64,000 nt of DNA, from the NCBI GenBank assembly GCA_000091205.1, contig AP006502.2; one strand, given 5' to 3'. The position numbers and the translations under genes are program-made. The notes under the pieces are model-generated. The model was not told where the DNA came from, made no database searches, and was given only the letters and a program-made list of their open reading frames with translations. This DNA comes from Cyanidioschyzon merolae. Its lineage: Eukaryota. Shown one piece after another: positions 1 through 51,191 of the stretch. Within the stretch, counting starts at the first letter, position 1. Each line of letters begins with the position of its first letter.

Positions 1-211
1 CGCGCACCGGAGAGATCAGGCAGGCATGAGTTATGACGCGCTTGTCGCTGTTGAATGGAAACGCGATCCAAATCTTTATGATCTACCTGTAAAGTACACG
101 TTGTATTTGCATTGAAGTCGTAGCAAACTGTAGTTTCAGTTGAATCGTGTTTCAGCGCTCAAGTAAGAATATTCAAGTGCTTTTTCGCGGTTTATAGCAG
201 AAGCGTTCAAA

Positions 212-951
212 TTGTGTTCTTTCTCGAAAGAAACTAAAAAAAGAAAGTTATGGAAAAGCAAGTGGAAGATCCTCGAGGGCCGGTACCGCCGGCTGCCAGA
301 AGAAAAACAAAAAACAATATGGAGTCCAGAGGAACAGGAGAGGACGAAGAAGCAAAGGCAGAAGGCTCTACTTCAAAGGCTGCAAGAAAGACGACTGTAC
401 GACGAGATGGTGGTGAAAGCCTTTCTTCTTGGACATATCAGGTATCCGTACATACAAAAATTGCGAGAGGCCATCAGAAACCGTGTCGATTCATGCTCCA
501 AGAGTGTTCGCAAGGCTTCTTTAGGACTGATGCGTATGGCCGGGGATATATTCCGCGACGTGACGCACATGGAAACGGTCGAGATTCCGGACGAGTTTTT
601 CGATAAGACGTGTATAGGTCAGCTGATACTTGGTACAGAGGAATCGCGGAAGGAAAATGGGCTAGTCCATGGCCTCCACGAAAAAAACATCCCTTTTACA
701 GCTTCAACGGCGCTCGGTACAAGGGTGACCGGGATATTTACAGCTATGGGGCGATGAAGTACCTCACGAACCTGAAGAACCATTTGACAACGAACCTCGA
801 ACGTTTCATGATACGCGCCGTGTTTGCACTCTACCCGGGCATCTCGCGCAATGGGAAAGGGGCGATGATCAACGGCATCACGAAAGATCGCAGGCATGAA
901 GATGAGGTCGAATTCGTCGACAAGAAGGCATCAAACGCGTGCACGAATTAA
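212..951 (+). pseudogene. Element-borne ORF1 region (lysine-rich N-terminus KKRKLWKSKWK), split into two frames (212..757 and 610..951) at an A7 homopolymer (681-687). It is either decayed or expressed by a -1 frameshift or transcriptional slippage.
   Basis: Both frames are conserved at the amino-acid level in copies B (23089..23852, minus) and C (30635..31309, minus). A fused reading ...GLVHGLHEK|KHPFYSFNGARYKGDRD... would need A8. The product is not recognisable. Confidence 0.35.
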
Positions 952-1166
952 GCTTCTGTAATCCGTGCGGCTGTACAAGAGCACCGTGCGGTACTGGGGT
1001 TGGCGTATCCAACAGACAAGATATCAGAGTTGAAAGAAGATAAGGAAAGATACTATCGCCTCATCCTGCGATATTTCGTGTTTCTGGACTGTGAACTCGA
1101 ACGCAAGGCGGAAATGAAGCTGAGTGAGGAAAAAATGAAGAGTGGGAGAGACGGAAGGCTGTCCTG

Positions 1167-2477
1167 TTGGGGAAGCGCTTCAAGGTCGGTGCGTTATGCA
1201 ACATCAAGTCACATTTTGTGAGTATCGATTCCGGCGTCCTCTACGGCATCATGAGGGAGATCTGTTCGGAGTTCGATGTTAGCAGGGAGGAATTCTCCCG
1301 GGAAAACCGGGAGACGTACTGGAAGAACATCTTCGATTTCAAACGTCTCAAAATGAGCGAGCAAAAGTTATTCACTGGGGTGATTGAAACCGATGGAGTA
1401 GCCATGTGTGTACGCTATCGGCGGTTGAAGAAAGATCGGCCAGTTCCGCCCTCGGCTGCGCCCGTCACGAAGGATGAAGAAAAGGAGGAGGCTGGTCCTG
1501 TGGCGCAGGAGGTGCAGGATGACGATCTTGTCGTTGGCGCGGCGAAGCATGAAGATGAGAAGGAGGCGGATCCTGTGATGCAGGAGGTGCAGGATAACGC
1601 CTTTATGGTTGGCGCGGCGAAGCATGAAGAAACGAAGAAGGCGGGTCCTGCGGTGCAGAAAGTGCAGGAGAACGACTTTGTCGTTGGCGCGGACCCCGGA
1701 AACACAAAAAGCATAACTATCGCAGCACCGAAGCGTGCAGAAGATGGTACTGATGGTAACTTGCGTCAGAAGGACATGCGCCTTTTGAGGTGCTCGAGAG
1801 CAAGATACTATCGAGAATCAGGTGTAATGAATGCAAGGAAGAAAATTGAGGCTTGGAACGAAGGAATGAAGGATCACCTGGAAGCTTTAAGCGAGGTGAC
1901 TAGACGAGGAGCGGACTTTGAGGCTTTTCGGAAATTCATGGAAGTTCGTGTTGCCCATTGGGATGCGCTGTGGGAGGAGTATACCAAGCCCCGCTGGGCT
2001 CGTTTGCGAATGAATCTATACTGTGGGAAGCAGCAGGCGTTCGCGAATTTTTTTAATGAGTTGAGCGCCCTGAAGGAGGATGAAAGTCAGAGGCTCGTCG
2101 TAGCGTACGGAGCAGGGCGCTGGAAGATCCGAAAAGGGTGTACACCAGCTCCAACAACGAGAACGTACAAGGAGTGTGCACGGCGTTTTGTTACAGTATC
2201 GATAGTTGAGTTTCGAGCATCGTATACACACCATGAGCTGGGCTGTATACTTCAGAGAGTGGAGATGGAAAAGTGCCAACGGAGCCCTGAGGATATAGCA
2301 AAGTACGGACCACTGACGGAGGAGCAAATGGAAAGGAGGGCAAAAATTCGTGGACTACTTGCATTAGTAAGTGCAACTCCCAACGGCACGAAACGTATGG
2401 AATTTGTGAACCGTGACTTTAACGCCGCTATCAATATACGGAGATGTGCGGTACTGGAGAAGAGACCTCCATCATAG
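1167..2477 (+). CDS. TnpB/Fanzor-like RNA-guided RuvC endonuclease homolog (OMEGA-type, IS200/605 OrfB family), intact 436 aa
   Basis: RuvC-I-like VVGADPGNT with Asp176. C-terminal RuvC-III signature [16 protein letters not shown] with Asp417, as in TnpB DRDVNAAINI. Degenerate Zn-finger-like segment THHELGC...EKC lies between them. The gene is repeated in three element copies. Confidence 0.75.
1470..1694 (+). repeat. In-frame 3 x 75-bp tandem repeat (25-aa units [21 protein letters not shown]). The third unit carries the RuvC-I Asp; units 1-2 end in GAA instead of GAD.
   Basis: The protein shows LVVGAAKHE / FMVGAAKHE / [10 protein letters not shown]. The antisense ORFs 1368..1625 and 1415..1714 are repeat artefacts. 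Confidence 0.8.
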
Positions 2478-2582
2478 ACAAGAGAGCACTTTATTGAACA
2501 ATCTGTCCAAGTCGAACTATATGAGAGAAAGTTGGAAGCAGTAGGAGGTGGCCGATCCAAGAAGGCGCGGAGGCATCTGCAC
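2478..2582 (+). ncRNA. Candidate omega-RNA (reRNA) scaffold at the element right end. The guide is expected from the flank immediately beyond 2582.
   Basis: A 105-nt segment between the nuclease stop codon and the point where homology is lost. It is conserved in copy B (21458..21561) and partly in copy C. The position matches where TnpB and Fanzor omega-RNAs are encoded. Confidence 0.35.
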
Positions 2583-2762
2583 AACTGTCGGAGATGATTT
2601 GTCCAAGGCGCGGTTGCCGCCACGACTGTCCACGCCCGACATCGTTCGAGTTTGAACAGCGTTTTGGAGGCGCGTAATCGATTCATTCGGTTCGCGTTGG
2701 AGCTTTTCGCGGCGTTTTCGTTTCGTGACTGCCGGACACGGGTTTTTGTGAGAAACAGCGAC

Positions 2763-2990
2763 ATGGCGTCACCAAAGAAGACTGCGACGAAAGCTGCTTC
2801 AGCACCGAAAAAGGCTGCGGCGAAAACGAAGGGCGAACGGAAACCAAACGCTTACCAAGAGTTTATGAAGGCAGAGAGTGCCAAGATTCGGGAGTACAAC
2901 AAAGCAAAAGGAATCGAAATGAGGCCACCTGATATTTTCAAGGAGTGTGCGAAGAGATGGAACGAGAAAAAGTCCAAGACAAAGGCGTAA
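2763..2990 (+). CDS. Small lysine-rich, HMG-box-like DNA-binding protein (75 aa)
   Basis: MASPKKTATKAASAPKKAAAKTKGERKPNAYQEFMKAE...AKRWNEKKSK. The P-x-AY-x-F ... W spacing resembles an HMG box, and the ends are basic. The gene lies 181 bp downstream of the copy A right end in the same orientation. Confidence 0.35.
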   Translation: MASPKKTATKAASAPKKAAAKTKGERKPNAYQEFMKAESAKIREYNKAKGIEMRPPDIFKECAKRWNEKKSKTKA

Positions 2991-3003
2991 AGGCTCTGGA
3001 CTT

Positions 3004-3388
3004 GCGCGGTGGTGACGGTACTGGTGCTGGCGGCAGCGGGTCGTGCAGCTTGTAGTTCATAGTCGGTGACCTGGACGTTGACGGAGCGGTGGTTATGGTG
3101 GCAGTGCTCGTGGTTGAGCTCGGCCCGTTACCCGCCAACGCGCTGAGGGGTCAAAAAGCAATCGGGGCTGTCGGCGTGTCACCGTTACAAAGCTCTGCTG
3201 TTGCAGGATGCGTTTTCCCTCGCCAGTTTGGACAAGAAGCTGCCCTCATTTCGGGGCGCTGGAACCAGTGCGAGGCAGCGCCGAGGCCAGGAGCATATGT
3301 CGGGGACGTTCACAGAGCTGGTTTCGATTGAGGTTGTGACGGTTGTGGTGGTTATGGTGCTGGTGCTGGTGCTGGTCGTGGTGGAACT
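3004..3388. repeat. Imperfect GTG/GCT/GGT-rich microsatellite cluster (e.g. 3333-3388 gttgtgacggttgtggtggttatggtgctggtgctggtgctggtcgtggtgg)
   Basis: Direct reading of the sequence. It produces spurious poly-Val and poly-Thr ORFs on both strands. Confidence 0.7.
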
Positions 3389-5695: not shown

Positions 5696-7149
5696 CAGAA
5701 ACTTGGCGCCACGAAACGAATGCATCAGCGCCACGATCGCTTCGGCGCAATCGGCGATGGGCGCGCTGGTGCACTCGCTGGCATCTGTGCAGCGCGATCC
5801 GTCGCTTACCGGGTTCGTTAAAGGTAACGCGCAGCTGGTGGATGTAGTTCAGTTCATGGGTCTGAATGCTGACGAAAATTGTGCATTTCCAGGTCACTGG
5901 ATTTGTGTCGTGAGACCGCTGCATGTAGAAGCGGGTTGTTCATTCACGGCATCAAAAGCTCGTTGTGTGGTGAGTCGTTTTGCGCATTCAGCCTCGAAGT
6001 GTACGCTCGAATCGGCAACGGTCTGAGAAACATTTTGAGCTATGGGTGGACTCCAAAATCAGGCCAAGCAAAGTGTTTCTCTTCAAACGGGCATGCTGAG
6101 GCGCCATCACGAGCCTTCATAGGAGAGCCTCAAGTCGGGTACCGCGAGTAGAAGCCATGGAGATTTAGCGCGTTATTTTGGCTCTAGTCAGTGACGTGGA
6201 TTGAATGAAACAGCGCTTTCGTTCAACAATTCCCATGAAAAACAGCTCCCAGTGGAAACATATAGATCGCGCTTTAGCTCTGGAGTACTGGTGAAACGCG
6301 CGGTACCATGGCTAGCTGCAGGCGCGAATCGAATCCTCTGTCGACCGGACGCTGGTTATTTTCATCAAAAGTCTGCAGCGTTTCAGGAAATGATCCATAT
6401 GGAGCACTCAACGACTCATCGGGATGTTCGTTCGTCCGTTCGTTCGCTCGAGCCAATACCGCTGAACGCTCCGGAAGCATGGGACATACCCGAATGGTCA
6501 TCGAGGCGATCGAGTCGCGGTCTACAAACTGCCTGCGCCCATTGTTGGCAGTAGAATCACACCAGAGTATGCTTCTCATTTTCGATTACCTCGCCATCGG
6601 TCGTGAAGTCAGCTTACCGTACACAATCCCGTGCATCTGACTCCGCCTCACGCTCTTCTTCTCTAACAGTTTTTGTTTGCGCCCGAGCTCGTGATGCGTT
6701 CACGTCGTCCTGAACATATCCATGGGTGTGGTTTCAGAATCGATTCATGGTTTATCATATGCTGTCGTTCAAGAAGCAGGCGTGCAGCCTTTTTGCGCCA
6801 CAGCACGTCCAGCGCCATTGGCTACCATCAAGCGACGTTACGCATCGGTCATTTGCGTTCCCAGCTCTTGGATCGAGCAGTCGAATGGACGCTTCCTGCC
6901 TCCGCACAACCGAAGCGGTAGACGATGCTTGTGCGATCCGAGGAACTGCCACAGGTCGTCTGCACAAGCCATTTGGACGATGACGTACGCTCCCTTCATG
7001 AAGCGTGCCGCGCGTGTCGCTTTGCTCGAAAAGGTGCTCAGGGCGTCGAAGTCGAACTCCAAGTCGCGACGCCGACCTTTCATTTGTTAGGGCGCTTCCT
7101 GCCGTCGATGAAGCCCTGCTCTCGATCATGTAGAGCGCTGGAAATGCTG

Positions 7150-7170
7150 AGCAGCAGCAGCAGCAGCAGC
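7150..7170. repeat. (AGC)7 trinucleotide microsatellite
   Basis: agcagcagcagcagcagcagc. Confidence 0.9.
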
Positions 7171-9485
7171 ATCTGCTTCCTGTTCCTGCCTTTCGTGTCG
7201 TTCTCTAGAATAGGAGTTGCGGCGACGGTCATGGTGTCGTTCAACTCGATTTGGATGTCCACCACAAACTCCCTCTGGTCACGCATGTTGAGCGGGTGAA
7301 AAAGAGTCTTGTTTGTCGACTAAAGCCTTGGTATCACAGAACGCACGCACATGGGTACTCCGTCCGTCTCCGTTGTCCCCAGAGACTTTCTTCGGTACCC
7401 TTCAAGAACTCCAGAAATCGTGAACGAGCCCCGCCAGTGCTCTGCTCGGAGTTCCCCGAATGCTCTAAACTTGCGCGGAGCAACTAGCGGGAGCTAAATG
7501 AGCAGGCCATACAGTACAGCACACAAGCGTCTACGTTAGTGTGATGAGCCTTTATCTAAAATGTGCGAGCAGCATCGAACACATGCTCGGGGAGGCTAAG
7601 GTGCTCGGTTTCGTAAACGGAGTCAGCCTTTCTCTGGAGGGCGCTTCACTGGAATACGAAGTAGCGCAAGATGGAAGCAAGGCGGGCATCACGTTCCAAT
7701 CATCCCTCGGATACAGTGTCCATTTGGCCGAGCCCGAGTTGAACGAGCTGAGCTTGCAGCATCTGAAACGACTCTCGCTCTCGTTGCGACATCTCTTCCG
7801 AACTCGCGAAAATCTCGAGCTCGTCGGTCACCAGCAACGCATTTGTCTCCATCGGCAGCCCAGTGATGTTTTCCATTAGGATCCACTTTATTGGGCTAGA
7901 ATGGTGAGGCTAAAACGCGCACATGGTGCTCTTTTTGGAGTGTTTGAGATTGGCCTTCATATGATGTTTGAGGTCGGATCGACTTTTTCCTGGTACCTGG
8001 AGAGCGTTTCTTCCAGTCTCTGATCCCACTATCAGGCTGCACTGCATCTTCTGTGCCGAGCATCAGAGGTGCTGTTGCACGACGGTTTGGTCGACGCGTT
8101 CCAGAAGAATGTGAGCAGCTGTCAGCCCTGCATCGGAAACGAGTTTGAACCTACGCTTGACGAGGTGCAGCCAGGCGACTGAGGCTAGACGAGACATGCT
8201 CGAATCAGTAGCCACGAACATCTCTGTGGCATTCTACATCTTTCAGCCTCACGGATGCGAACGAATCGTCTATTGATCCGTAAGCGTAAAAATGACGGTA
8301 GATTGTAAAGAAGACGCTTTGGAGCAGACTGAACCGGGAAGAAGAAGTTCACACGAGGAGCAACACAGCGTAAATCTCAGCTGGGTACGTCTTGATAATA
8401 CTCGAGCGATGGAAAGTGGCATTCTCCAGGAGCAGAGCAAAACAGTTTGGCACGGGAAAGCCAAGAATTGTGCTTCGACGAAGGATATACTTTGAACAAT
8501 CCTGCTTTTTTTGCGATTTGTGATCGACCGCACGATTGCGTTGCTACAGCGGCTGATGTTGTCGTCGTTCTCGCTTGTCTCTTATGTACGCATACCGATT
8601 TTTCTTCTTTGAATACCCATATATAGACCCACCATTTATCCCAAATAGGGGGTCTTGTCAAGTGAGATGAACGCCAGCCACTCCTGCGATAAATGTACTC
8701 TTTTTCGTACGAAATCGACAATGCGTTGTTGAACACACAGGATTCTGGAATGGATGCGCAGTTTTTTGTCCATGCCCGTCCATAGCTCTTCATACCTGTT
8801 CGTGTCGACGCTATAAAAAGCTCATTTGCTGCTGCCTCATCTTGAGTATTTCGTAAAGAAACCTATGGAATAAGATCGATTGACATGTACAGTCGAGTCC
8901 ATAGAATTTGAAATGTTCTATTTCTGGGTGCGCTGTGTTCAGGTAAAGCACGACCCCGAGCGTGACTCATCCACCTGCAGGCCGTAGAATGACGAACTCG
9001 TAGAAGCACAACTGTTTTCCTGCAGCTGTCAGCGACAGCATCCAGTCTTTCAACGATGTTTCCCCACTTTCCAGGAAATACTTCTTTTGTTGAATACGTG
9101 CAAGAAAATCGAGTAAAAACGAAACATGGCATGCTTTAACAGGTATTTCAGAATCTACCGCTCCGCGTACCATGCTCTTCATCGACGACACCCGAGACTT
9201 ACTCGCGAAACGAACCCACCACCGAAAGGCCTATGCAGAAACGCCACACATGGATCAAACCGCACGCTCCGGGGAACGTCGGGCAGTTGCATTGGCGGAA
9301 CGCACACGAGCGTCGATAGAAGGACTCGAGTGTCTTCTCGCTGGTTACTGGGAGCGTGCTGTCGTTCGTCGGACTCGGGCCGTTCCTATTAATTCTTCTT
9401 CAGGAACAGTCCATTCATAAGTGATCCGAGCAACTCAATCGCTGCGTCGACCTCTTGAGTGTCGTTGAAACTTGCGCACTGTGCG

Positions 9486-21369: not shown

Positions 21370-21457
21370 GCACCAAACGCCGTTCGAACTTGAACGACGT
21401 CGGGCGTGTACAGTAGTGGCGGGAAAACCGTCTTAGATTAGAAGTCTCCAACTGACG

Positions 21458-21561
21458 TGCAGATGCCTCCGCGCCTTTTTGGATCGGCCACCTCCTACTG
21501 CTTCCAACTTTCTCTCATATAGTTCGACTTGGACAGATTGTTCAATAAAGTGCTCTCTTGT
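21458..21561 (-). ncRNA. Candidate omega-RNA scaffold of copy B. The flank beyond 21457 (element orientation: gtcagttggagacttctaatct...) would be the guide.
   Basis: About 97% identical to 2478..2582. It ends at the same ...ggaggcatctgcac boundary. Confidence 0.35.
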
Positions 21562-22872
21562 CTATGATGGAGGTCTCTTCTCCAGTACCGCACATCTCCG
21601 TATATTGATAGCGGCGTTAAAGTCACGGTTCACAAATTCCATACGTTTCGTGCCGTTGGGAGTTGCACTTACTAATGCAAGTAGTCCACGAATTTTTGCC
21701 CTCCTTTCCATTTGCTCCTCCGTCAGTGGTCCGTACTTTGCTATATCCTCAGGGCTCCGCTGGCACTTTTCCATCTCCACCTTCTGAAGTATACACCCCA
21801 GCTCATGGTGTGTATACGATGCTCGAAACTCAACTATCGATACTGCAACAAAACGCCGTGCACACTCTTTGTACGTTCTCGTTGTTGGAGCTGGTGTACA
21901 CCCTTTTCGGATCTTCCAGCGCCCTGCTCCGTACGCTACGACGAGCCTCTGACTTTCATCCTCCTTCAGGGCGCTCAACTCATTACAAAAATTCGCGAAC
22001 ACCCGCTGCTTCCCACAGTATAGATTCATTCGCAAACGAGCCCAGCGGGGCTTGGTATACTCCTCTCCCAGCGCATCCCAGTGGGCAACACGAACTTCCA
22101 TGAATTTCCGAAAAGCCTCAAAGTCCGCTCCTCGCCTAGTCACCTCGCTCAAAGCTTCCAGGTGATCCTTCATTCCTTCATTCCAAGCCTCAATTTTCTT
22201 CCTTGCATTCATTGTACCGGATTCTCGATAGTATCTTGCTCTCGAGCACCTCAAAAGGCGCATGTCCTTCTGACGCAAGTTACCATCAGTACCATCTTCT
22301 GCACGCTTCGGTGCTGCGATGGTTATGATATGTGTGTTTCCGGGGTCCGCGCCAACGACAAAGTCGTTCCCCTGCACTTTCTGCACCGCAGGACCCGCCT
22401 TCTTCGTTTCCTCATGCTTCGCCGCGCCAACCATAAAGGCGTTATCCTGCACCTCCTGCATCACAGGATCCGCCTCCTTCTCATCTTCATGCTTCGCCGC
22501 GCCAACGACAAGATCGTCATCCTGCACCTCCTGCGCCACAGGACCAGCCTCCTCCTTTTCTTCATCCTTCGTGACGGGCGCAGCCGAGGGCGGAACTGGC
22601 CGATCTTTCTTCAACCACCGATAGTGTACATACAATGCTACTCCATCGGTTTCAATCACCCCAGTGAACAACTTTTGCTTGCTCGTTTTGAGACGTTTGA
22701 AATTGAAGGTGTTCTTCCAGTAGGTTTCCCGGTTTTCACCGGTGAAGTCCTCCCTGCTAACATCGAACTCCGGACTGTTCTCCCTCATGATGCCGTAGAG
22801 GACGCCGGAATCGATACTCACAAAGTGTGACTTGATGTTGCATAACGGAACGACGTTGAAGCGCTTCCCCAT
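21562..22872 (-). CDS. TnpB/Fanzor-like RuvC endonuclease homolog, intact 436 aa (about 93% aa identity to copy A)
   Basis: Same motifs as copy A: VVGADPGNT and [26 protein letters not shown]. Length and stop position are identical. Confidence 0.75.
22345..22569 (-). repeat. 3 x 75-bp in-frame tandem repeat inside the copy B nuclease gene (same as 1470..1694)
   Basis: The protein has an identical repeat structure. The antisense ORFs 22081..22830 and 22319..22624 are artefacts. Confidence 0.8.
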
Positions 22873-23088
22873 TCGGACAGCCTTCCGTCTCTCCTACTCT
22901 TCATTTGTCTCTTCACTCAGCTTCATTTCCGCCTTGCGTTCGAGTTCACAGTCCAGAAACACGAAATATCGCAGGATGAAGCGATAGTATCTTTCCTTAT
23001 CTTTTTTCAACTCTGATATCTTGTCTGTTGGATACGCCAACCCCAGTACCGCACGGTGCTCTTGTACAGCCGCACGGATTACAGAAGC

Positions 23089-23852
23089 TTAATTCGTGCA
23101 CGCGTTTGATGCCTTCTTGTCGACAAATTCGACCTCATCTTCATGCCTGCGATCGTTCGTGATGCCGTTGATCATCGCCCCTTTCCCATTGCGCGAGATG
23201 CCCGGGTAGAGTGCAAACACGGCGCGTATCATGAAACGTTCGAGGTTCGTTGTCAAATGGTTCTTCAGGTTCGTGAGGTACTTCATCGCCCCATAGCTGT
23301 AAATATCCCGGTCACCCTTGTACCGAGTACCGTTGAAGCTGTAAAAGGGATGTTTTTTCGTGGAGGCCATGGACTAGCCCATTTTCCTTCCGCGATTCCT
23401 CTGTACCAAGTATCAGCTGACCTATACACGTCTTATCGAAAAACTCGTCCGGAATCTCGACCGTTTCCATGTGCATCACATCACGATACATCTCCCTCAC
23501 CAAATGCATCAGTCCTGACGACGCCTTGACAATACTCTTGGTGTACGAGTCGACACGTTTTACGATAGCGTCTCGCAACAATTCCCTGTGGGGATCCTTG
23601 ATATGTCCAAGAAGGAAGGTTTTCACCACCTTCTCGTTGTACAGTCGTCTTTCTTGCCGCCTTCGACGTAGGGCCTCTCCCTTTCGGTTCTTCTTCTATT
23701 CCTTTTCTCCTGGACTCGGCACTGTTTTTTGTTTTTTCTGGCAGCCTGCGACCCTGGGCCTCCAGGATCGTGGACATGCTTTTCCATAGCTTTCCTTTTT
23801 GTTTTTTTTTTGAAGAAGAACGCTCTTTGAACCCTTCTGTTATATACTGCAA
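23089..23852 (-). pseudogene. Element ORF1 region of copy B, broken into at least 3 frames (23089..23370, 23312..23629, 23481..23852). The homopolymer is A6 (T6 at 23353-23358 on the + strand).
   Basis: Amino-acid homology to 212..951, with HPFYSFNG.RYKGDRDIYSYGAMKYL...VEFVDKKASNACTN identical. Additional indels occur near the N-terminus. Confidence 0.35.
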
Positions 23853-25870
23853 AAAAACACTAGACTAGAGTTGTTTGAAGTTTGAAACAAAAACGAACTG
23901 AAAGGCTGTACTTTGCAATGACCTCAACGAAAATACAACTTTTAGAACAGAGCTACACGAATGAGATCGAGATCGCGTCTCTCTTCAACGACGGCACGCA
24001 CATCGTGTCAGTTAACTGCGCGATCTCCCAAGCGCGCTCGCTATGCGCAATGCGTGCACCGCGCGAGACGCTACTCGGATCGATGAAGGACACGTGTTCG
24101 ACGCCGCATTGGCACATGCGCGTTAGCATCGCACTGGAGCTGAAATAAAGTATCATAGACCGGAAACTCACGTGGAACGATCTCTTGCTATAAGCTATGT
24201 CGCTCGTGCACATCGCAGTACGGACCTGACATACATGGAGATGTAGGGGCCTGGCACGATACCCCTCGACGCTTCTATCAAAAGCGTAGTCGCGGTAGCA
24301 TCTTACGCTTGTGCGGGTAAGGTATGCATCACACCAGCTTGGAAGGGTTTCGTTCGGTTTATTGATCGTAAATAAAGTAGGCACAGTCGTATAACCAAGT
24401 ATGAATATACGTTTATTCTCTATCCTTGTTATGCATGCAGCGCAGACGCTGGAATAAGGAACTGACCTGAATTTTGCTTCTATCCTGCGTTATGTTCCGG
24501 AACTGATGGCACTTCAAGTCATTTCCATGCTACCGTCATTGTCCAAGTTATGGTGCCCGCTACTCTCCCGGATCCGGTGATCTCCGCAGAGGTAAAGCAC
24601 ACACATGTACCGTCCATACCTGCCATGACGTTTGAGCCTTGCGTCTCGCCTGGCACCATGGAGGCACCAGCACCACAGCGCCCCGTACGCGCTAGATCGC
24701 AACGAGTCTCTCGCGAAGCGCATTTTGCTGACACACCGGGGTTTCGATGGATCACGGATCCAAGTGCAGATCCCTCATGTGGCATGGAGGCATGGTCCAT
24801 GCATGCAGAGGAGTTATCCGTATGTCGTTGCGATTTGTGCGCTTCCACACAGGTGGCCCCAAGTATCGAACAGAAGCGTATGCAGAACGCTGCAGCACTG
24901 TCGTTGACAAGTATCGCTACAATATGGGGCCTTTAAAACCGTCAGGTACGCTGGCTTGTTTGCGTTTCTGTCGGACGAAGGTTGGTGACTTGGTTGTTAA
25001 AGAGGCAGCATGGCGTGAGCAGAGGCCGCGGTACTCGCGCAGGCACCATGACCTTCGGTTGGAGCCATAGGTGTGGGTCAGCGTCCCGAAAAGCGATCTG
25101 AAGAACAACGTCTGTGTTATGGGTCGAAAGCGGCTGCTTTTGTACACCACTGGGCGCAGCAAATAACGACACTTTAAGAACGATGCTCGCATCTCTGCAA
25201 CGGACCCGGTTTGAGGCGACTGCCCCTGCAGGCACACGATTCGCCACGCGGTTGCGCTTCTGATCGATGTTGTGCTCGATGAGCGTGGTCACGCATTGCG
25301 ACCGGTAAATAAGAGTATCTTTCCTTACGTTCAAGACTGGCATGCAACCGCGTTTGTGCTCACTAAATGTCTTATTCCAGAACCTAGTTGCACCTGTCGG
25401 AACAAGCATTTCGTTCAGTTGCTGGGGTGCGGCTGGTGCATCATTGTGGTTTGCAACGCGCTCTAGAAAGACGCGCTTCCGGTGCGCACTGCCGAGTGCC
25501 CGGCGGGTAGCGAACGAACGCAGCGTCTCTTATGAGTGACGAGAATCCGTGCGTAGCGCTGCTCGTTCCTCTCCGGACTGGAACGCTGGTGTCAAAGGCG
25601 GTGACTCGCAGACGGGAATCTAGTGCTCGTCGCAGGAACCGTTGTGGCACTAGACCGCACAGCTCCCATGACGCTGCTATACGCAAACACGCTGAAGGAG
25701 TCAGACGACGTTCCCTATGTCAAATTTTGCACCAGGACGCGTCCAGATGTTGCCACTACCGCATGTAGATTTCGAGCTCGTTAAAAAAAGAACCTTCTGG
25801 CCCTGCCAGCTTGGCGGATAGATCCCATTGCCAGATGCGTTCACCCGAATCCAAGCGAATGGACGCGGCC

Positions 25871-29347: not shown

Positions 29348-30588
29348 CTCGCAGACGCCTCCCAGTCTTTCTCGACCGGCCTGCTTCTGTCGGTTTCAGC
29401 ATCTCCCTATACATTTCGACGCTGAAAGGCTGTCCAGCAAAGTTGGCTCGCGTCTGCTCCGCGGGTCTCTTCTTCAGCACCGCGCATCTTCGGATACTGA
29501 TAGCAGCGATAAGGTCTCGGCTCACAGACTCCATGCGTTTCTTGCCGCCGCCTGTACACGGCAATGCGAATAGGCCTCGAACTTTCGCCCTCCTTCCCAT
29601 TTGCTCTTCCGTCAACGCTCCGTACTTTCTTACATCCTCGGGGATCCGCTGACGCTTTTCCATCTCGACCCTCTGAAGTGTACACATCAGCTCGTGGTAC
29701 ACGTAGGACGTTCGGAACTCATCTGTAGGTATCGTGACGAAACGCCGTGCGCTCTCCTTGTACGCTCGTGTCGACGGAGCTGGCGTAGTCCCTTTTTTCG
29801 ACGCCCAGCGCTCTGCCCCGTATGCAACACGAGCCTTTGACTCTCGTCCTCTTTGAGGGCGTTCAGCTCGTTGGAAAAGTTGGCGAATGCACGCTGCTTC
29901 CCACAAAAGAAGCTGATACGCAGACGAGCCCAACGGGGCTTTGTGTACTCTTTCCACAGCGCCTCGTACTGAGAAACGCGAACTTTCACGAATTCCCGAA
30001 AAGCTCGAACGTCCGCCCGACGGCTCGTCACCTGGCTGATCGCTGCTAGGTGTTCTTTGACTCCTGAGTTCCACTTCTCACTCTGTATCCTTGGATTCCT
30101 TACCCAGACTCTCGGTAGCACCCAGCGCTTGAGAACCTCAAAAGACACATGCCTTTCTGACGTAAGTTACCTTCAATGCCGTTTCCCCCGCGTTCGAGTG
30201 CTGCGATGGTCACGGTATCCGTGTTCTCGGGGTCCGCGCCAACGACAAAATCGTTGCTCTGCACCTGCTGTGCCGCAGGGCCCGCCTCCTTTTCTCCACG
30301 CTTCGTCAAAATCGACAACAAAAACGGAATAGGACGATCCGCCTTCAACTGCCGATCGTGCACATACATGGCTACTCCATCGGTTTCGATGACGCCTGTG
30401 AATACCTTTTGCTTGCTCGCATGGAAACGTTTGAAATCGAAGATATTCATCCAGTATGTCTCCCGATTTTCGGCGTTGAACTCTATGTTCCTTACATCGG
30501 ACTCTGGACAGACCTCCTTCATGATGCCGTCAACGGCTGTGGAGTCGATAGTCACGAAATGTGATCTGATGTTGCACATTGGAACCAC
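29348..30588 (-). pseudogene. TnpB/Fanzor-like nuclease pseudogene. It needs at least 2 frameshifts (fragments 30100..30588, 29687..30148, 29304..30074), has a single repeat unit and lacks a stop at the homologous position.
   Basis: VVGADPENT is retained, but RuvC-III is altered to RDLIAAISIRRCAVL and the Zn-finger Cys are lost ([20 protein letters not shown]). The ORF reads through the right end into the flank. Confidence 0.65.
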
Positions 30589-30634
30589 GTTGAAGCGCGT
30601 CCCCAGAAGCGCCGCCTTCCCTCTCTCTTACTCT

Positions 30635-31309
30635 TCATTTCTCCCTCACCCAGCTCCTTTTCGGCCTTGCGTTCGAGTTCTCAGTCCAAAAACACGAAAT
30701 AGCGCAGGATGAGGTGATAGTATCTTTCCTTATCTTTTTTCGTATGTGCAACCTTTTTGCTGGGTTGACAAGCCCCAAGACTGCACGGTGCTCTTGTAGA
30801 GCAGCACGGATTCCAGAAGCTTCGTTGTTTCTCCTGCGTGATGTCTTCTTGTCGACGAATTCGATCTCATCTTCACGCTGGCGATGGTTCGTGACGTCAT
30901 TGATGAAGGCCCGTATCCATCTACTAGACAGGTCCGGGTAGAGTGCAAACACGGCGCGTATCATGGAGCGTTCGATGCTCATGGTCAAGTGGTTCTTCAG
31001 GTTCGTGAAGGACTTTTTCGCATCGTAGGTGTAAATATCCGCCTCAGCCTCGTACCGTCTACAGCTGAAGCGATATTCGGCGTAATTCTAGTGGAGAACG
31101 TGCACTCGCTCGTCTCTCCTCGTCGTTCTCCCTGTTCCAAGCATCAGGTTGCTGATATATATCATATGGAAAAATTCCTCCGGAATCTCGACTATTTCCA
31201 TGTGCGTCAGGTCGTCGTGCATCTCGTTCACCAAATGGATTCGTTCTGACGAGGCCTTTATATTACTCATGGAGCACGAGTCGACACGGTTTCTGATGGC
31301 CTCTCGCAA
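30635..31309 (-). pseudogene. Remnants of element ORF1 in copy C (30635..30988 and 31088..31309)
   Basis: MIRAVFALYPDLS...EDEIEFVDKKTS and REAIRNRVDSCS...THMEIVEIPEEFF are homologous to the ORF1 frames of copies A and B. Confidence 0.4.
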
Positions 31310-32684
31310 CTTTTCCTTTTACGGATCCATGACATGTTTAAGAAGGTAGGCTTTCGCCACCGTCCAGTCGTACTGTTGTCTTTCCCGCAGCCTTTTCTGC
31401 GTGGGGCCTCCTGCCTTTGCTTCCTTGTCCTCTACTGTTCCTCTAGACTCGGCACTGCTTTTTGTCTTTTCCGGCAGCTGGCAACAGCGGTCCTTAAGGA
31501 TCCTCTATTTGCATCCCCATAACTTTTTTTATTTTTGAAAACGAACGCACTTTGAACGGATCTGATATGAACCGCGAAAAATCACTTGAATAAACTGAAC
31601 TGAGGCTTGAAACACGATTGGATTGAAAGCGCACACTTTGCTATGACTTCAATGCAAATACAACTTGTACTTTAGAGCAACAAGCTAATGATCAGAATTG
31701 CATTTCTCTTCAACTGCGAGATACGAATCGTGTCTCATTCCTGCCAGATTTAGAGGTGCGCGGATCGACCGGGCTTTAGAAAAAAGAACAGATACGAACC
31801 ACTAGCTAGGAAACACAAGTTCTTTGGCAATCTACGGTAAACGTTTCAAGGGGAAAAGGTGTCCACATTGTCGGAAGTTTACCTTCTACGCGGAAAGTGC
31901 CGCAAGCCGGACGAGTCTGCACGTCTTGCGCTTCATGCTCCCTCCAGTGTTGGGTGGTGTTGTAAGATATGAGCTGCTCTTGTGCAATCCGGTTTATTCT
32001 GGAATTCGGAGCAGGTATGCTGCGTCTGCGTGTTGCCCTGCTCGCAGGATTATCCGAGTGTATCGCTTCGCGCTGTCGCAGACACTGGGTCTGTATGCCG
32101 AGTTTCCAGACTCCTAGAATGATTATGTACTCAGACCCCGTGATGGGTAAACGAAGTCTCGAGACGATGCCCTAAGTGGTATGGCAAAGCCATTTTGTAA
32201 CCGTGATGTTCGGCATCAGCGGTATAGGCGCTGATGTAGGTGTTCGTAGCAGATACTCTGCGAACGATAGAACGTACAAACCGGCCAATACATCCGAGAG
32301 GAGGTAATGGAACCTGGAGTCATGGTGCAGCAGTATGATGGACGCTTTCCCGAAAGCCATTATCCAATGATCCTGCAATCTAGAATCCTTGGTCAATGGA
32401 ATGGTTCTGTCATCACCGTTAAGGATGCGCAGCCGGGGATCCTGGTCGTCGATGTTGCCTTGTTGTCCCGCAAACTTCATTGCCGAAGATCTGGTACTAA
32501 AGTATATAATTATGTCCATAAAGGATCCAGGTATCCCACATCGCCAAGGCGCTCTGGGCCGCGATCTCCCCGGCGCCGCCTTGGGCGCAGCAGAGCGCAG
32601 CGTCTGACGGACCGGGAGCATTAGCACTGGACGCGAAAGTTTAGGATTAGGATTGACGCCCGCAAGAGTACCTAGATCGTTTTT

Positions 32685-49592: not shown

Positions 49593-51191
49593 TCACAAGG
49601 GATTACGAAGAACCTTTTCCAATACGGTGACATTCGGCGCGGCCACAGCACGACGTGCTTTAACGTGCGACAAGGCATCCTCCAGCGTCATGCCGCGGCG
49701 CCACACGAGGTAGGCGACAACTACAGCGGGCGCTCGACCCATTCCTGCGGTACAGTGCACGTAGACGACGCGCTTCGCCTTGAGCGCCGCATCAAGAGCG
49801 CGTACGGCATCCGGAAGCAACTGCATGAGCGCCTCCGCATTAAAATCCGGAATCGGACAACGGATGACTTGCATCTCTAGTGCTGTATATGTCTCCATCA
49901 GCGTCGACCAGGGAATACTGCGGTGTGCAAAGTCCTCATCGGTCTGTAAATTCAAAACAGCCGTAATCCCCGCCTCATGCATCATTTCGACATGCTCTGG
50001 AGTTTGTGGGTAGGGCCCTATGTAAATGTCCGGACATATTTCATCAAATTCTAACGAAGCGACAAAATTTGCATCGAAACATTCGAGGCGCCCGTTCACC
50101 GCTCGTTCTAGTGTTGCATAGCGATTCGGTTCTCGTTCCCAGATCGTTTGCTGGCGGTTATCGTCGACTAGCACATAGCGATAGGCGAATTTGCCCACCG
50201 TGGATGGCACTGAAACCGTCAAGGACCAACGTCGGCCCTTGCCTCCTGTTTCCAAACGCTCCTCAGTAGTTGAGAGGGCCATGGGTACTGGACCCGGTTC
50301 TACCCACCGACCGATTTCCGGAAGATCGCCAGTGACACAGAGATGCTGCTTCTCTTTGGTAGGATAGTATATTGAGAACAGCACACGCGTACGCTCCCAT
50401 TCCACTTCAATCAGGCAGCCGTCCTTCGAGTTTCTCTGGATCACGGCTCTTCGGTTGGGTCCGGTTTCCCAGAGCGCACGCTGCGGATCTCCGCCTATAA
50501 GACGCACGAATTTGAACTCGAAGCTTGTTTCGGGTACAAGGTCTACCTCGCCTTCCCAGCAGTCACGGAACGGTGTATCCACTTGGCATTGATGACGGAG
50601 CCGGAGCGCTTTCGCGGGCTCCCAGTTGCCCAATTTGTCGTGACTACCAGCGGCGACGACAGCATCGCCAAACTCCGTGTGGCAGTAGACGCGGAATAAA
50701 GTCGGAATCGTCGGGGTTACGCTTCGATCATTCTTTGAGATCGTGTCCGCAATGTCTGAAGGAGGCCCAGGTACAGAGATATCCTCGGAAGCACCCCGTG
50801 CGGCTGGTGTTGACTGCGCACCAGACGAATCAGCAGCTGGCTTTGACGGAGGCTCAGGTACAGAGACACCCTCGGATGCAAACCGTGCGGCTGGTGTTGA
50901 CTGCGCACCAGACGAATCGGCAGCTGGCTTTGATGGAGGCCCAGCTACAGAGACTCCCTCGGAAGCACGCCGTGCGGCTGGTGTTGACTGCGCACCAGAC
51001 GAATCAGCAGCTGGCTTTGACGGAGGCTCAGCTACAGAGACTCCCTCGGAAGCACGCCGTGCGGCTGGTGTTGACTGCGCACCAGACGAATCAGCAGCTG
51101 GCGCTCTTGCCATCGACGGCACCCGATGCCGGCTTTCCGAGCCTGCCTGGTCGTTTGTGTTCCGGCGATCCGATGTTCGTATACGCGCCAT
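49593..51191 (-). CDS. Laforin/SEX4-like glucan phosphatase (two CBM20 starch-binding modules + dual-specificity phosphatase) with an N-terminal tandem-repeat region
   Basis: CBM20-like FRVYCHTEFGDAVVAAGSHDKLGNWEPAKAL and LFSIYYPTKEKQHLCVTGDLPEIGRW. DSP active site VHCTAGMGRAPAVVVAYLVW. Confidence 0.6.
   Translation of the reverse strand: MARIRTSDRRNTNDQAGSESRHRVPSMARAPAADSSGAQSTPAARRASEGVSVAEPPSKPAADSSGAQSTPAARRASEGVSVAGPPSKPAADSSGAQSTPAARFASEGVSVPEPPSKPAADSSGAQSTPAARGASEDISVPGPPSDIADTISKNDRSVTPTIPTLFRVYCHTEFGDAVVAAGSHDKLGNWEPAKALRLRHQCQVDTPFRDCWEGEVDLVPETSFEFKFVRLIGGDPQRALWETGPNRRAVIQRNSKDGCLIEVEWERTRVLFSIYYPTKEKQHLCVTGDLPEIGRWVEPGPVPMALSTTEERLETGGKGRRWSLTVSVPSTVGKFAYRYVLVDDNRQQTIWEREPNRYATLERAVNGRLECFDANFVASLEFDEICPDIYIGPYPQTPEHVEMMHEAGITAVLNLQTDEDFAHRSIPWSTLMETYTALEMQVIRCPIPDFNAEALMQLLPDAVRALDAALKAKRVVYVHCTAGMGRAPAVVVAYLVWRRGMTLEDALSHVKARRAVAAPNVTVLEKVLRNPL
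50741..51107. repeat. 4 x 87-bp near-identical tandem repeats encoding PPSKPAADSSGAQSTPAARRASEGVSVAE units at the phosphatase N-terminus
   Basis: The DNA units ...ccagacgaatcagcagctggctttgacggaggc...gtgcggctggtgttgactgcgcacc are repeated almost verbatim. Antisense ORFs 50525..51247 and 50743..51321 are artefacts. Confidence 0.85.

Follow-up and report, generated by a model that had tools for sequence, protein, structure and literature searches.

The RuvC-type open reading frame in a 64-kb Cyanidioschyzon merolae window is very probably the nuclease half of a decayed Fanzor1 gene of the CMe-1A family with a shifted active-site glutamate

A 64-kb stretch of DNA from Cyanidioschyzon merolae, referred to below as the window, contains at positions 1167-2477 of the plus strand an open reading frame of 436 aa (1311 nt) whose product resembles a TnpB-type nuclease, and the question that it raises is whether such a protein can cut DNA with no glutamate on its RuvC-II strand and with a degenerate zinc finger. 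Fanzor1 proteins are eukaryotic RNA-guided DNA endonucleases of the TnpB type. In a sequence-only reading of positions 1920-2400, the glutamate had been reported as missing from the RuvC-II strand, an acidic residue farther downstream had been proposed as its substitute, and a rearranged active site or a catalytically dead protein had been offered as alternatives; all the protein strings quoted there indeed lie within that interval and within the open reading frame at 1167-2477 (+). The analysis presented here indicates that this region very probably encodes the RuvC half of a Fanzor1 nuclease, that it belongs to a decayed copy of the CMe-1A element, and that its active site consists of D176, E348, and D417 (residue numbers of the open reading frame).

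The element is an already known one. Bao and Jurka (Mobile DNA 4:12, 2013; PMC3627910) catalogued CMe-1A as a Fanzor1 family of C. merolae with a length of about 3 kb and about 150 copies that are about 80% identical to the consensus, with TIRs absent and few copies intact. The CMe-1A consensus (3169 bp) and the CMe-1 protein (734 aa) were taken from the supplement of that paper (PMC3627910) and compared with the window. The copy that carries the open reading frame, here called copy A, occupies positions 1-2667 (+), its 5' end being cut by the window edge; by blastn, window positions 1-2633 match consensus positions 659-3137 with 85-87% DNA identity, and from there the copy extends as far as the right end. 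The open reading frame, which represents no more than the C-terminal 60% of the 734-aa CMe-1 protein, corresponds to its residues 306-690; by BLASTP, 332 of 385 aligned residues are identical (86%), and there are two extra 25-aa repeat units. It comprises the end of the WED domain, a repeat linker, the RuvC domain, and a degenerate TNB/zinc-finger region. The linker, an acidic stretch predicted to be disordered (pLDDT below 50 for residues 92-153), contains three tandem 75-nt (25-aa) repeats at positions 1468-1692 (+) and precedes the RuvC-I strand. The RGLLAL motif has CMe-1 as its sole carrier in the 2013 supplement (PMC3627910). A total of 185 close homologues was found in the protein database, all of them at least about 59% identical and many of them fragments, as would be expected of a multi-copy family in decay. 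The family was found at 71 metagenome loci as well, among which there was one distinct intact reading frame, that of the 752-aa protein P0003 (locus L001); locus L002 gave a 99%-identical match to it. The sequences flanking the copies of this multi-copy family differ from one copy to another, and a comparison of the aligned element ends revealed no TIRs, in agreement with the published description (PMC3627910).

The nature of the encoded protein became evident only from its distant relatives. No TnpB or Fanzor match was obtained from Pfam with the open reading frame, the upstream reading-frame fragments, or six close homologues, and PDB sequence searches with the single open reading frame or with a shallow family profile (35 sequences, at least 76% identity) gave no match; an AlphaFold model built on the shallow family alignment reached a pLDDT of 35 and was discarded. 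A profile search over 1.84 billion representative proteins (E ≤ 1e-3) yielded 1316 matches, many of them 600-700 aa long, and the alignment termed A2 (86 sequences) was composed of the window open reading frame, four family members, and 81 long distant relatives with 27-45% identity. Compared with the PDB, the A2 profile matched the Fanzor1 structures PpFz1 of Parasitella (9cf0, E = 1e-21), SpuFz1 of Spizellomyces (8gkh, E = 4e-14), and GtFz1 of Guillardia (9cer, E = 2e-7). With the deep alignment, the AF2 model of the open reading frame reached a pLDDT of 81.5 and a pTM of 0.75, and the best seven Foldseek matches to it were all Fanzor1 structures (SpuFz, PpFz, and GtFz; E values from 1.2e-11 to 1.5e-7, TM scores of at most 0.61), followed by Cas12 and TnpB structures at E values of about 1e-4. 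The WED-RuvC-TNB fold of Fanzor1 and TnpB is therefore recognizable in the modeled product.

These alignments were used to locate the catalytic residues. The RuvC-I aspartate is D176 (nt 1692-1694, +; consensus D431), which lies in a DPG motif (GADPGN) whose three residues are conserved in 81, 76, and 81 of the 81 relatives, respectively. The RuvC-III aspartate is D417 (nt 2415-2417, +; consensus D672), which is kept in 79 of them and stands in a nearly invariant RDxNAAxNI motif (N-R416-D417-F-N-A-A-I-N-I). On the RuvC-II strand (aa 308-319, nt 2088-2123, +), the sequence-only reading was right that there is no glutamate: the glutamate of the hhhE[DN]L motif of canonical TnpB proteins (the Ecan type) is not found, the strand reading LVVAYG315, and the canonical position is taken by G315 (nt 2109-2111), a glycine in 80 of the 81 relatives that aligns with the glycine of the SpuFz1 strand VVMGD. 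The acidic candidate placed by that reading in the segment of aa 344-353 (nt 2196-2225) also held up, the glutamate of its VEF motif being E348 (nt 2208-2210, +; consensus E603), the alternative RuvC-II glutamate or Ealt, which is present in 81 of 81 relatives. Only F69, D76, D176, and E348 are invariant in the alignment with the relatives. Conservation of this degree at D176, E348, G315, and D417 goes well beyond chance. Because the residue that precedes E348 varies in them (D, C, S, or P), the valine in the VEF of the window is of little consequence. In the profile alignment with 8gkh, D176, E348, and D417 fall on residues D777, E935, and D1000 of the chain, which correspond to D383, E541, and D606 of SpuFz1 once the offset of 394 due to the MBP fusion, verified on the three triad residues and on N385, is subtracted. 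In the cryo-EM structure, D383, E541, and D606 of SpuFz1 coordinate two Mg2+ ions (PMC10432273). In the AF2 model, strand 310-315 is closed by G315, and E348 comes after the next strand (342-346); six residues beyond E348 lies position 355, which is that of the first zinc-finger cysteine (C1).

This arrangement agrees with what is known of Fanzors. Jiang et al. (2023; PMC10530073) described Fanzors that have glycine or proline at the canonical RuvC-II glutamate position and an alternative conserved glutamate about 45 residues downstream, which is essential in ApmFz2, as revealed by the E467A mutation (PMC10530073). The same arrangement was found in large TnpB clades by Altae-Tran et al. (2023; PMC10691335), who likened it to RuvX, and Yoon et al. 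(2023; PMC10711439) characterized Fanzors by a DPG motif in RuvC-I together with Ealt, a glutamate six residues before the first CxxC. Thus, the suggestion that RuvC-II is rearranged here as in some Fanzor/TnpB lineages was correct as to the rearrangement, but not in taking it for something special, since it is reported as a hallmark of Fanzors generally (PMC10530073, PMC10711439). The shifted glutamate is the standard Fanzor arrangement, for which Mg2+ binding and an essential role have been demonstrated in SpuFz1 and ApmFz2, and in this respect the element is an ordinary one. The homology to SpuFz1 E541 and the secondary-structure position support the assignment of E348 as the third carboxylate; the glutamate would be supplied by the next strand, six residues ahead of the zinc-finger position, with G315 remaining on the usual strand, and the active site of an intact protein of 734-752 aa would be formed by D431, E603, and D672 in consensus numbering.

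The zinc finger, in turn, is as degenerate as had been noticed. The open reading frame contains no CxxC...CxxC pattern, and the segment concerned reads THHELGC at aa 354-360 (nt 2226-2246) and EKC at aa 368-370 (nt 2268-2276). The four cysteines of SpuFz1 (C942, C945, C980, and C985 of the 8gkh chain) align with H355, L358, L400, and P405. The first half of the remnant (positions 2229-2276, +) includes H355 and L358 at the C1 and C2 positions, mapped on C548 and C551 of SpuFz1, and the family-specific residues C360 and C370; the second half (2349-2381, +), with L400 (C3) and P405 (C4), aligns with HGLLGCTNPNC of SpuFz1 and HGLLRCKNMSC of PpFz1. Among the 81 relatives, the C1 column is occupied by H (29), Y (11), F (9), S (8), D (8), and C (8), the C2 column by D (45) and T (25), and the C3 column by C (60), Y (9), and S (5), and the C4 column never contains cysteine; when 10 representatives of these relatives were scanned with the TNB/zinc-ribbon model PF07282, only sub-threshold scores were obtained. 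Bao and Jurka had called the C4 zinc finger strictly conserved and part of the definition of Fanzor and TnpB proteins, and made no comment on the shifted glutamate or on the absence of the zinc-finger cysteines from CMe-1 (PMC3627910). As judged from these columns, the C4 zinc finger of the TNB/NUC domain is lost in the CMe-1 family and in a large clade of its relatives, and zinc fingers have likewise been lost in some TnpB branches (PMC10691335). Because neither the fold nor the catalytic triad has been lost, the ancestral protein would most likely have cut DNA without a structural zinc.

The finger of CMe-1A might instead have been remodeled, with H355, H356, C360, and C370 forming a new metal site. 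Within the family, each of the four is either invariant or conserved at 90% or more, H355 stands exactly at the C1 position, and C360 and C370 were set in the zinc-finger columns of the published alignment (PMC3627910). However, the family is shallow (60-94% identity), so that conservation inside it means little, and in P0135, the nearest outgroup (45% identity), H356 is replaced by A and C360 by Q, and no cysteine stands at the position of C370. Moreover, C370 belongs to an insertion peculiar to the family, which 61-68 of the 81 relatives lack, and position 370 is occupied by R, F, L, or P in several copies of the family itself, whereas position 360 is an R in the ancient copy D of the window (see below). 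A remodeled metal site is thus possible but unlikely, and loss of the finger is the reading that we retain.

The absence of a glutamate from the canonical RuvC-II strand and of the C4 zinc finger could also be taken to mean that the whole family derives from TnpB/Fanzor but has lost catalysis and been recruited elsewhere, e.g. for RNA-guided binding or regulation; inactivated and exapted TnpBs are known in prokaryotes (PMC10691335), and the family matches no Pfam TnpB family. Nevertheless, no residue of the D-E(alt)-D triad has been lost, and all three are invariant or almost invariant in the 81 relatives despite their low identity, and E348 is homologous to a proven Mg ligand. Exapted TnpBs lose triad residues, being recognized by a replaced triad and by an immobilized single-copy gene in a conserved host context, and none of these features is found in the CMe-1 family, whose gene is multi-copy and mobile (four copies in the window, 71 metagenome loci, and about 150 copies reported). 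A dead family is for these reasons very unlikely, and the concern that the protein had been inactivated through loss of its triad is not supported. We infer from the conservation of the active site that the intact members of the CMe-1 family are nucleases.

Copy A itself is no longer working, for a reason that the sequence-only reading had missed, since the open reading frame is what is left of the C-terminal part in a pseudogene with frameshifts. Relative to the consensus, copy A has frameshifts at about positions 302 (+1), 689 (+2), and 1130 (-1), stop codons TAA at 949 (consensus codon 233) and TAG at 2475 (codon 692), and TTG in place of the consensus ATG (Met306) at the start of the open reading frame. 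WED and REC are required for binding of the guide RNA and of the target. The three frameshifts and the upstream stop would remove the N-terminal 305 residues, i.e. the WED/REC part, and any protein made from copy A would also lack the C-terminal 43 residues and the internal methionine. An interpretation of the frame changes 5' of the open reading frame as introns was rejected, since both the intact P0003, which is one continuous frame where the upstream sequence of copy A spans three frames, and the published consensus code continuously through them.

The other copies present in the window are decayed as well. Copy B (21372-24009, minus strand; positions 24009-21406 match consensus 687-3137 with 85-87% identity) is 92-95% identical to copy A and carries two frameshifts and four stops. 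Copies A and B share the stops at codons 233 and 692 as well as both 75-nt insertions and, therefore, descend from a copy that was already dead. Copy C (29351-32414, minus strand) covers consensus positions 2-3084, that is, the full length, at 80.6% identity and has seven frameshifts and six stops. Copy D (6442-7993, minus strand) is an ancient and heavily decayed relative, detected by tblastn with about 35% amino acid identity in the RuvC part, that has many stops, yet keeps the sequence ILWCDST. An intact full-length coding sequence is accordingly absent from the copy A locus, and copies B, C, and D are likewise broken. The match to the CMe-1A consensus by itself points to C. merolae or a close relative as the most likely source of the window. 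As to the surroundings of these copies, the GC content of the window is 50-59%, and the genes nearby are apparently uninterrupted and of eukaryotic type, including an NTF2-like gene (recognized by eye) and a gene with an HMG box, which is consistent with that source.

The decay of copy A stands beside clear traces of past selection, with a dN/dS ratio of 0.21 when the open reading frame is compared with the consensus and of 0.26 when it is compared with the intact P0003. These values reflect a long-term constraint on the coding sequence and fit the argument made in 2013 that the Fanzor protein had a function (PMC3627910). That the open reading frame is still a functional RuvC-only protein, truncated at its N terminus and under selection in copies A and B, is the least probable of the alternatives and hardly tenable: although its 1311 nt are open and free of indels in both copies with the upstream third broken in both, and dN/dS between A and B is 0.46, the frame of copy A starts with TTG rather than ATG and lacks the WED/REC part needed for guide and target binding, it stayed open in 15% of simulations with 48 random substitutions, so that its intactness is not significant, the upstream indels fall in homopolymer runs that are rarer in the open reading frame, and non-consensus changes have accumulated beside the active site (IPVDEFRTS to VSIVEFRAS). 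Copy A is thus best regarded as a pseudogene of a formerly constrained gene.

Downstream of the open reading frame, about 190 nt (positions 2478-2667, +) make up the 3' region and the right end of the element, and they are conserved among 21 aligned copies. Homology to more than 60 other copies ends at window positions 2663-2669, and the right end of the element reads ...CGTTCGACTTTCGAACGGCGTT (also given as ...TCGAACGGCGTT). It includes a terminal hairpin, CGTTCGA-NNN-TCGAACG, for which one compensatory change was observed in locus L009. In a Fanzor element, the scaffold of a guide (omega) RNA would be expected in this 3' region. Rfam gave no match on the 3' region, only 2 of the 30 base pairs predicted by RNAalifold covary, and the window copy folds no better than shuffled sequences (z = +1.39), folding being somewhat better in the better-kept copy at locus L039 (z = -1.82).

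The locus itself carries little weight, being the relic of a transposon family described in 2013, and what is mildly new beyond the literature is the large zinc-finger-less Fanzor1 clade, all else being known. All 81 long matches examined belong to this clade. Look-ups of the clusters of the relatives returned only unnamed metagenome proteins, and Pfam currently places the clade as a domain of unknown function (PF26935/DUF8286). The broader proposition that no member other than CMe-1 has been catalogued from a large and almost only metagenomic Fanzor1 clade without the C4 zinc finger and with an invariant D-E(alt)-D triad, whose intact members would be zinc-finger-independent RNA-guided nucleases, is about evenly balanced in our judgment. 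In practice, Pfam does not recognize the CMe-1 family and its metagenomic relatives as TnpB or Fanzor, because they have lost the zinc-finger cysteines on which its model is anchored, and automated annotation therefore lists them as hypothetical proteins or DUF proteins; searches anchored on the zinc finger, such as PF07282 or regular expressions based on CxxC, miss the clade. That a clade lacking zinc ligands has kept its triad and has evidently been under purifying selection suggests that the zinc finger may be dispensable for the Fanzor1 scaffold, which, if true, would be of some interest for shrinking or engineering Fanzor1 nucleases.

When compared with known systems, the window copies are closest to CMe-1A, to which they belong as members of the same family, with 80-87% DNA identity to the consensus over 2.5-3.1 kb, and the published picture of an element of about 3 kb with many copies about 80% identical, no TIRs, and mostly decayed matches what is seen in the window. 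They differ from the consensus in being single decayed insertions with several stops and frameshifts, and copies A and B in having two extra 75-nt repeat units. The solved Fanzor1 proteins SpuFz1 (8GKH), PpFz1 (9CF0), and GtFz1 (9CER) share only 10-17% sequence identity with the open reading frame; they have a CCCC zinc finger (CxxC...Cx4C), whereas the CMe-1 family has H, L, L, and P at these positions, together with an insertion of its own (aa 367-392) and the acidic repeat linker.

The prokaryotic TnpB2/pro-Fanzor proteins, e.g. TvTnpB (clade RIIr-5), follow the same logic, which is that of RuvX as well: the glycine at the beta-4 glutamate site is compensated by a glutamate that the following strand supplies (PMC10530073, PMC10691335, PMC10711439). 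In contrast to CMe-1, they are about 400 aa long, occur in an IS607/IS605 context, and keep the C4 zinc finger. The match to TnpB is far more distant (8h1j, Foldseek E = 2.5e-4). Canonical TnpB of ISDra2 and Cas12f carry their glutamate in the hhhE(D/N)L strand, where the open reading frame has G315, and have a D-hydrophobic-G motif and a C4 zinc finger, whereas the open reading frame has the DPG motif.

Copies A (1-2667, + strand) and B (21372-24009, - strand) of the decayed Fanzor1 transposon CMe-1A lie in opposite orientation, 18.7 kb apart. The two repeat insertions and a pair of stop codons occur in both, so the duplication took place after inactivation. Their identity is patchy, with values of 84% at 303-686, 98% at 682-1135 and 95% at 1133-2675, and this mosaic suggests recombination or gene conversion among the copies. 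The 5' region of copy B, leftwards of consensus position 687, is unlike that of copy A and is also found in the related metagenome loci L011, L027, L035 and L061.

Within the Fanzor ORF, a 75-nt tandem repeat encoding 25 acidic residues occupies 1468-1692 (+) in copy A and 22347-22571 (-) in copy B, where it falls in a disordered linker directly ahead of the RuvC-I strand. This coding-region repeat is polymorphic in copy number, with three units in each of copies A and B, one each in the published consensus and copy C, and a higher number in the homologous proteins P0003 and P0005. Another tandem repeat in the window, at 50757-51102 (three overlapping 172-nt copies, 91-93% identical, spaced by 87 nt), is unrelated to the Fanzor finding.

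The right end of the element carries a terminal hairpin, CGTTCGA-CTT-TCGAACG (2640-2667, +), conserved at the right ends of loci L003-L070; it lengthens to about 12 bp in some copies and shows one compensatory change, G:C to U:A, in locus L009. Directly past ...GGCGTT, the flanks of copy A and of these loci lose sequence similarity. About 100 bp downstream of copy A starts a small HMG-box-like gene (2763-2990, +) with a weak Pfam match to HMG_box_2 (E = 0.009).

All 71 related loci (L002-L072) come from a few JGI and ENA metagenomes (Ga0080006, Ga0078972, Ga0207433, Ga0209012, Ga0123519, JGI24721J*, JGI20133J14441 and OGCG01*), and L005 matches the 3' portion of copy A at 97.7% identity, which indicates that the window's organism, or a very close one, is abundant in those samples.

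In precomputed Pfam results for proteins P0001-P0120 and locus L001, the sole match of the family was a weak one to PF26935 (DUF8286), and no TnpB/Fanzor model was matched; distant relatives scored only below threshold with PF07282. The clade thus represents an annotation gap. The ancient and heavily decayed copy D (6442-7993, -) retains ILWCDST, which resembles the wider clade consensus RGLLWCxST, whereas CMe-1A has RGLLALVST there; loss of the last cysteine remaining at any zinc-finger position was therefore probably a late event, inside the CMe-1A lineage.
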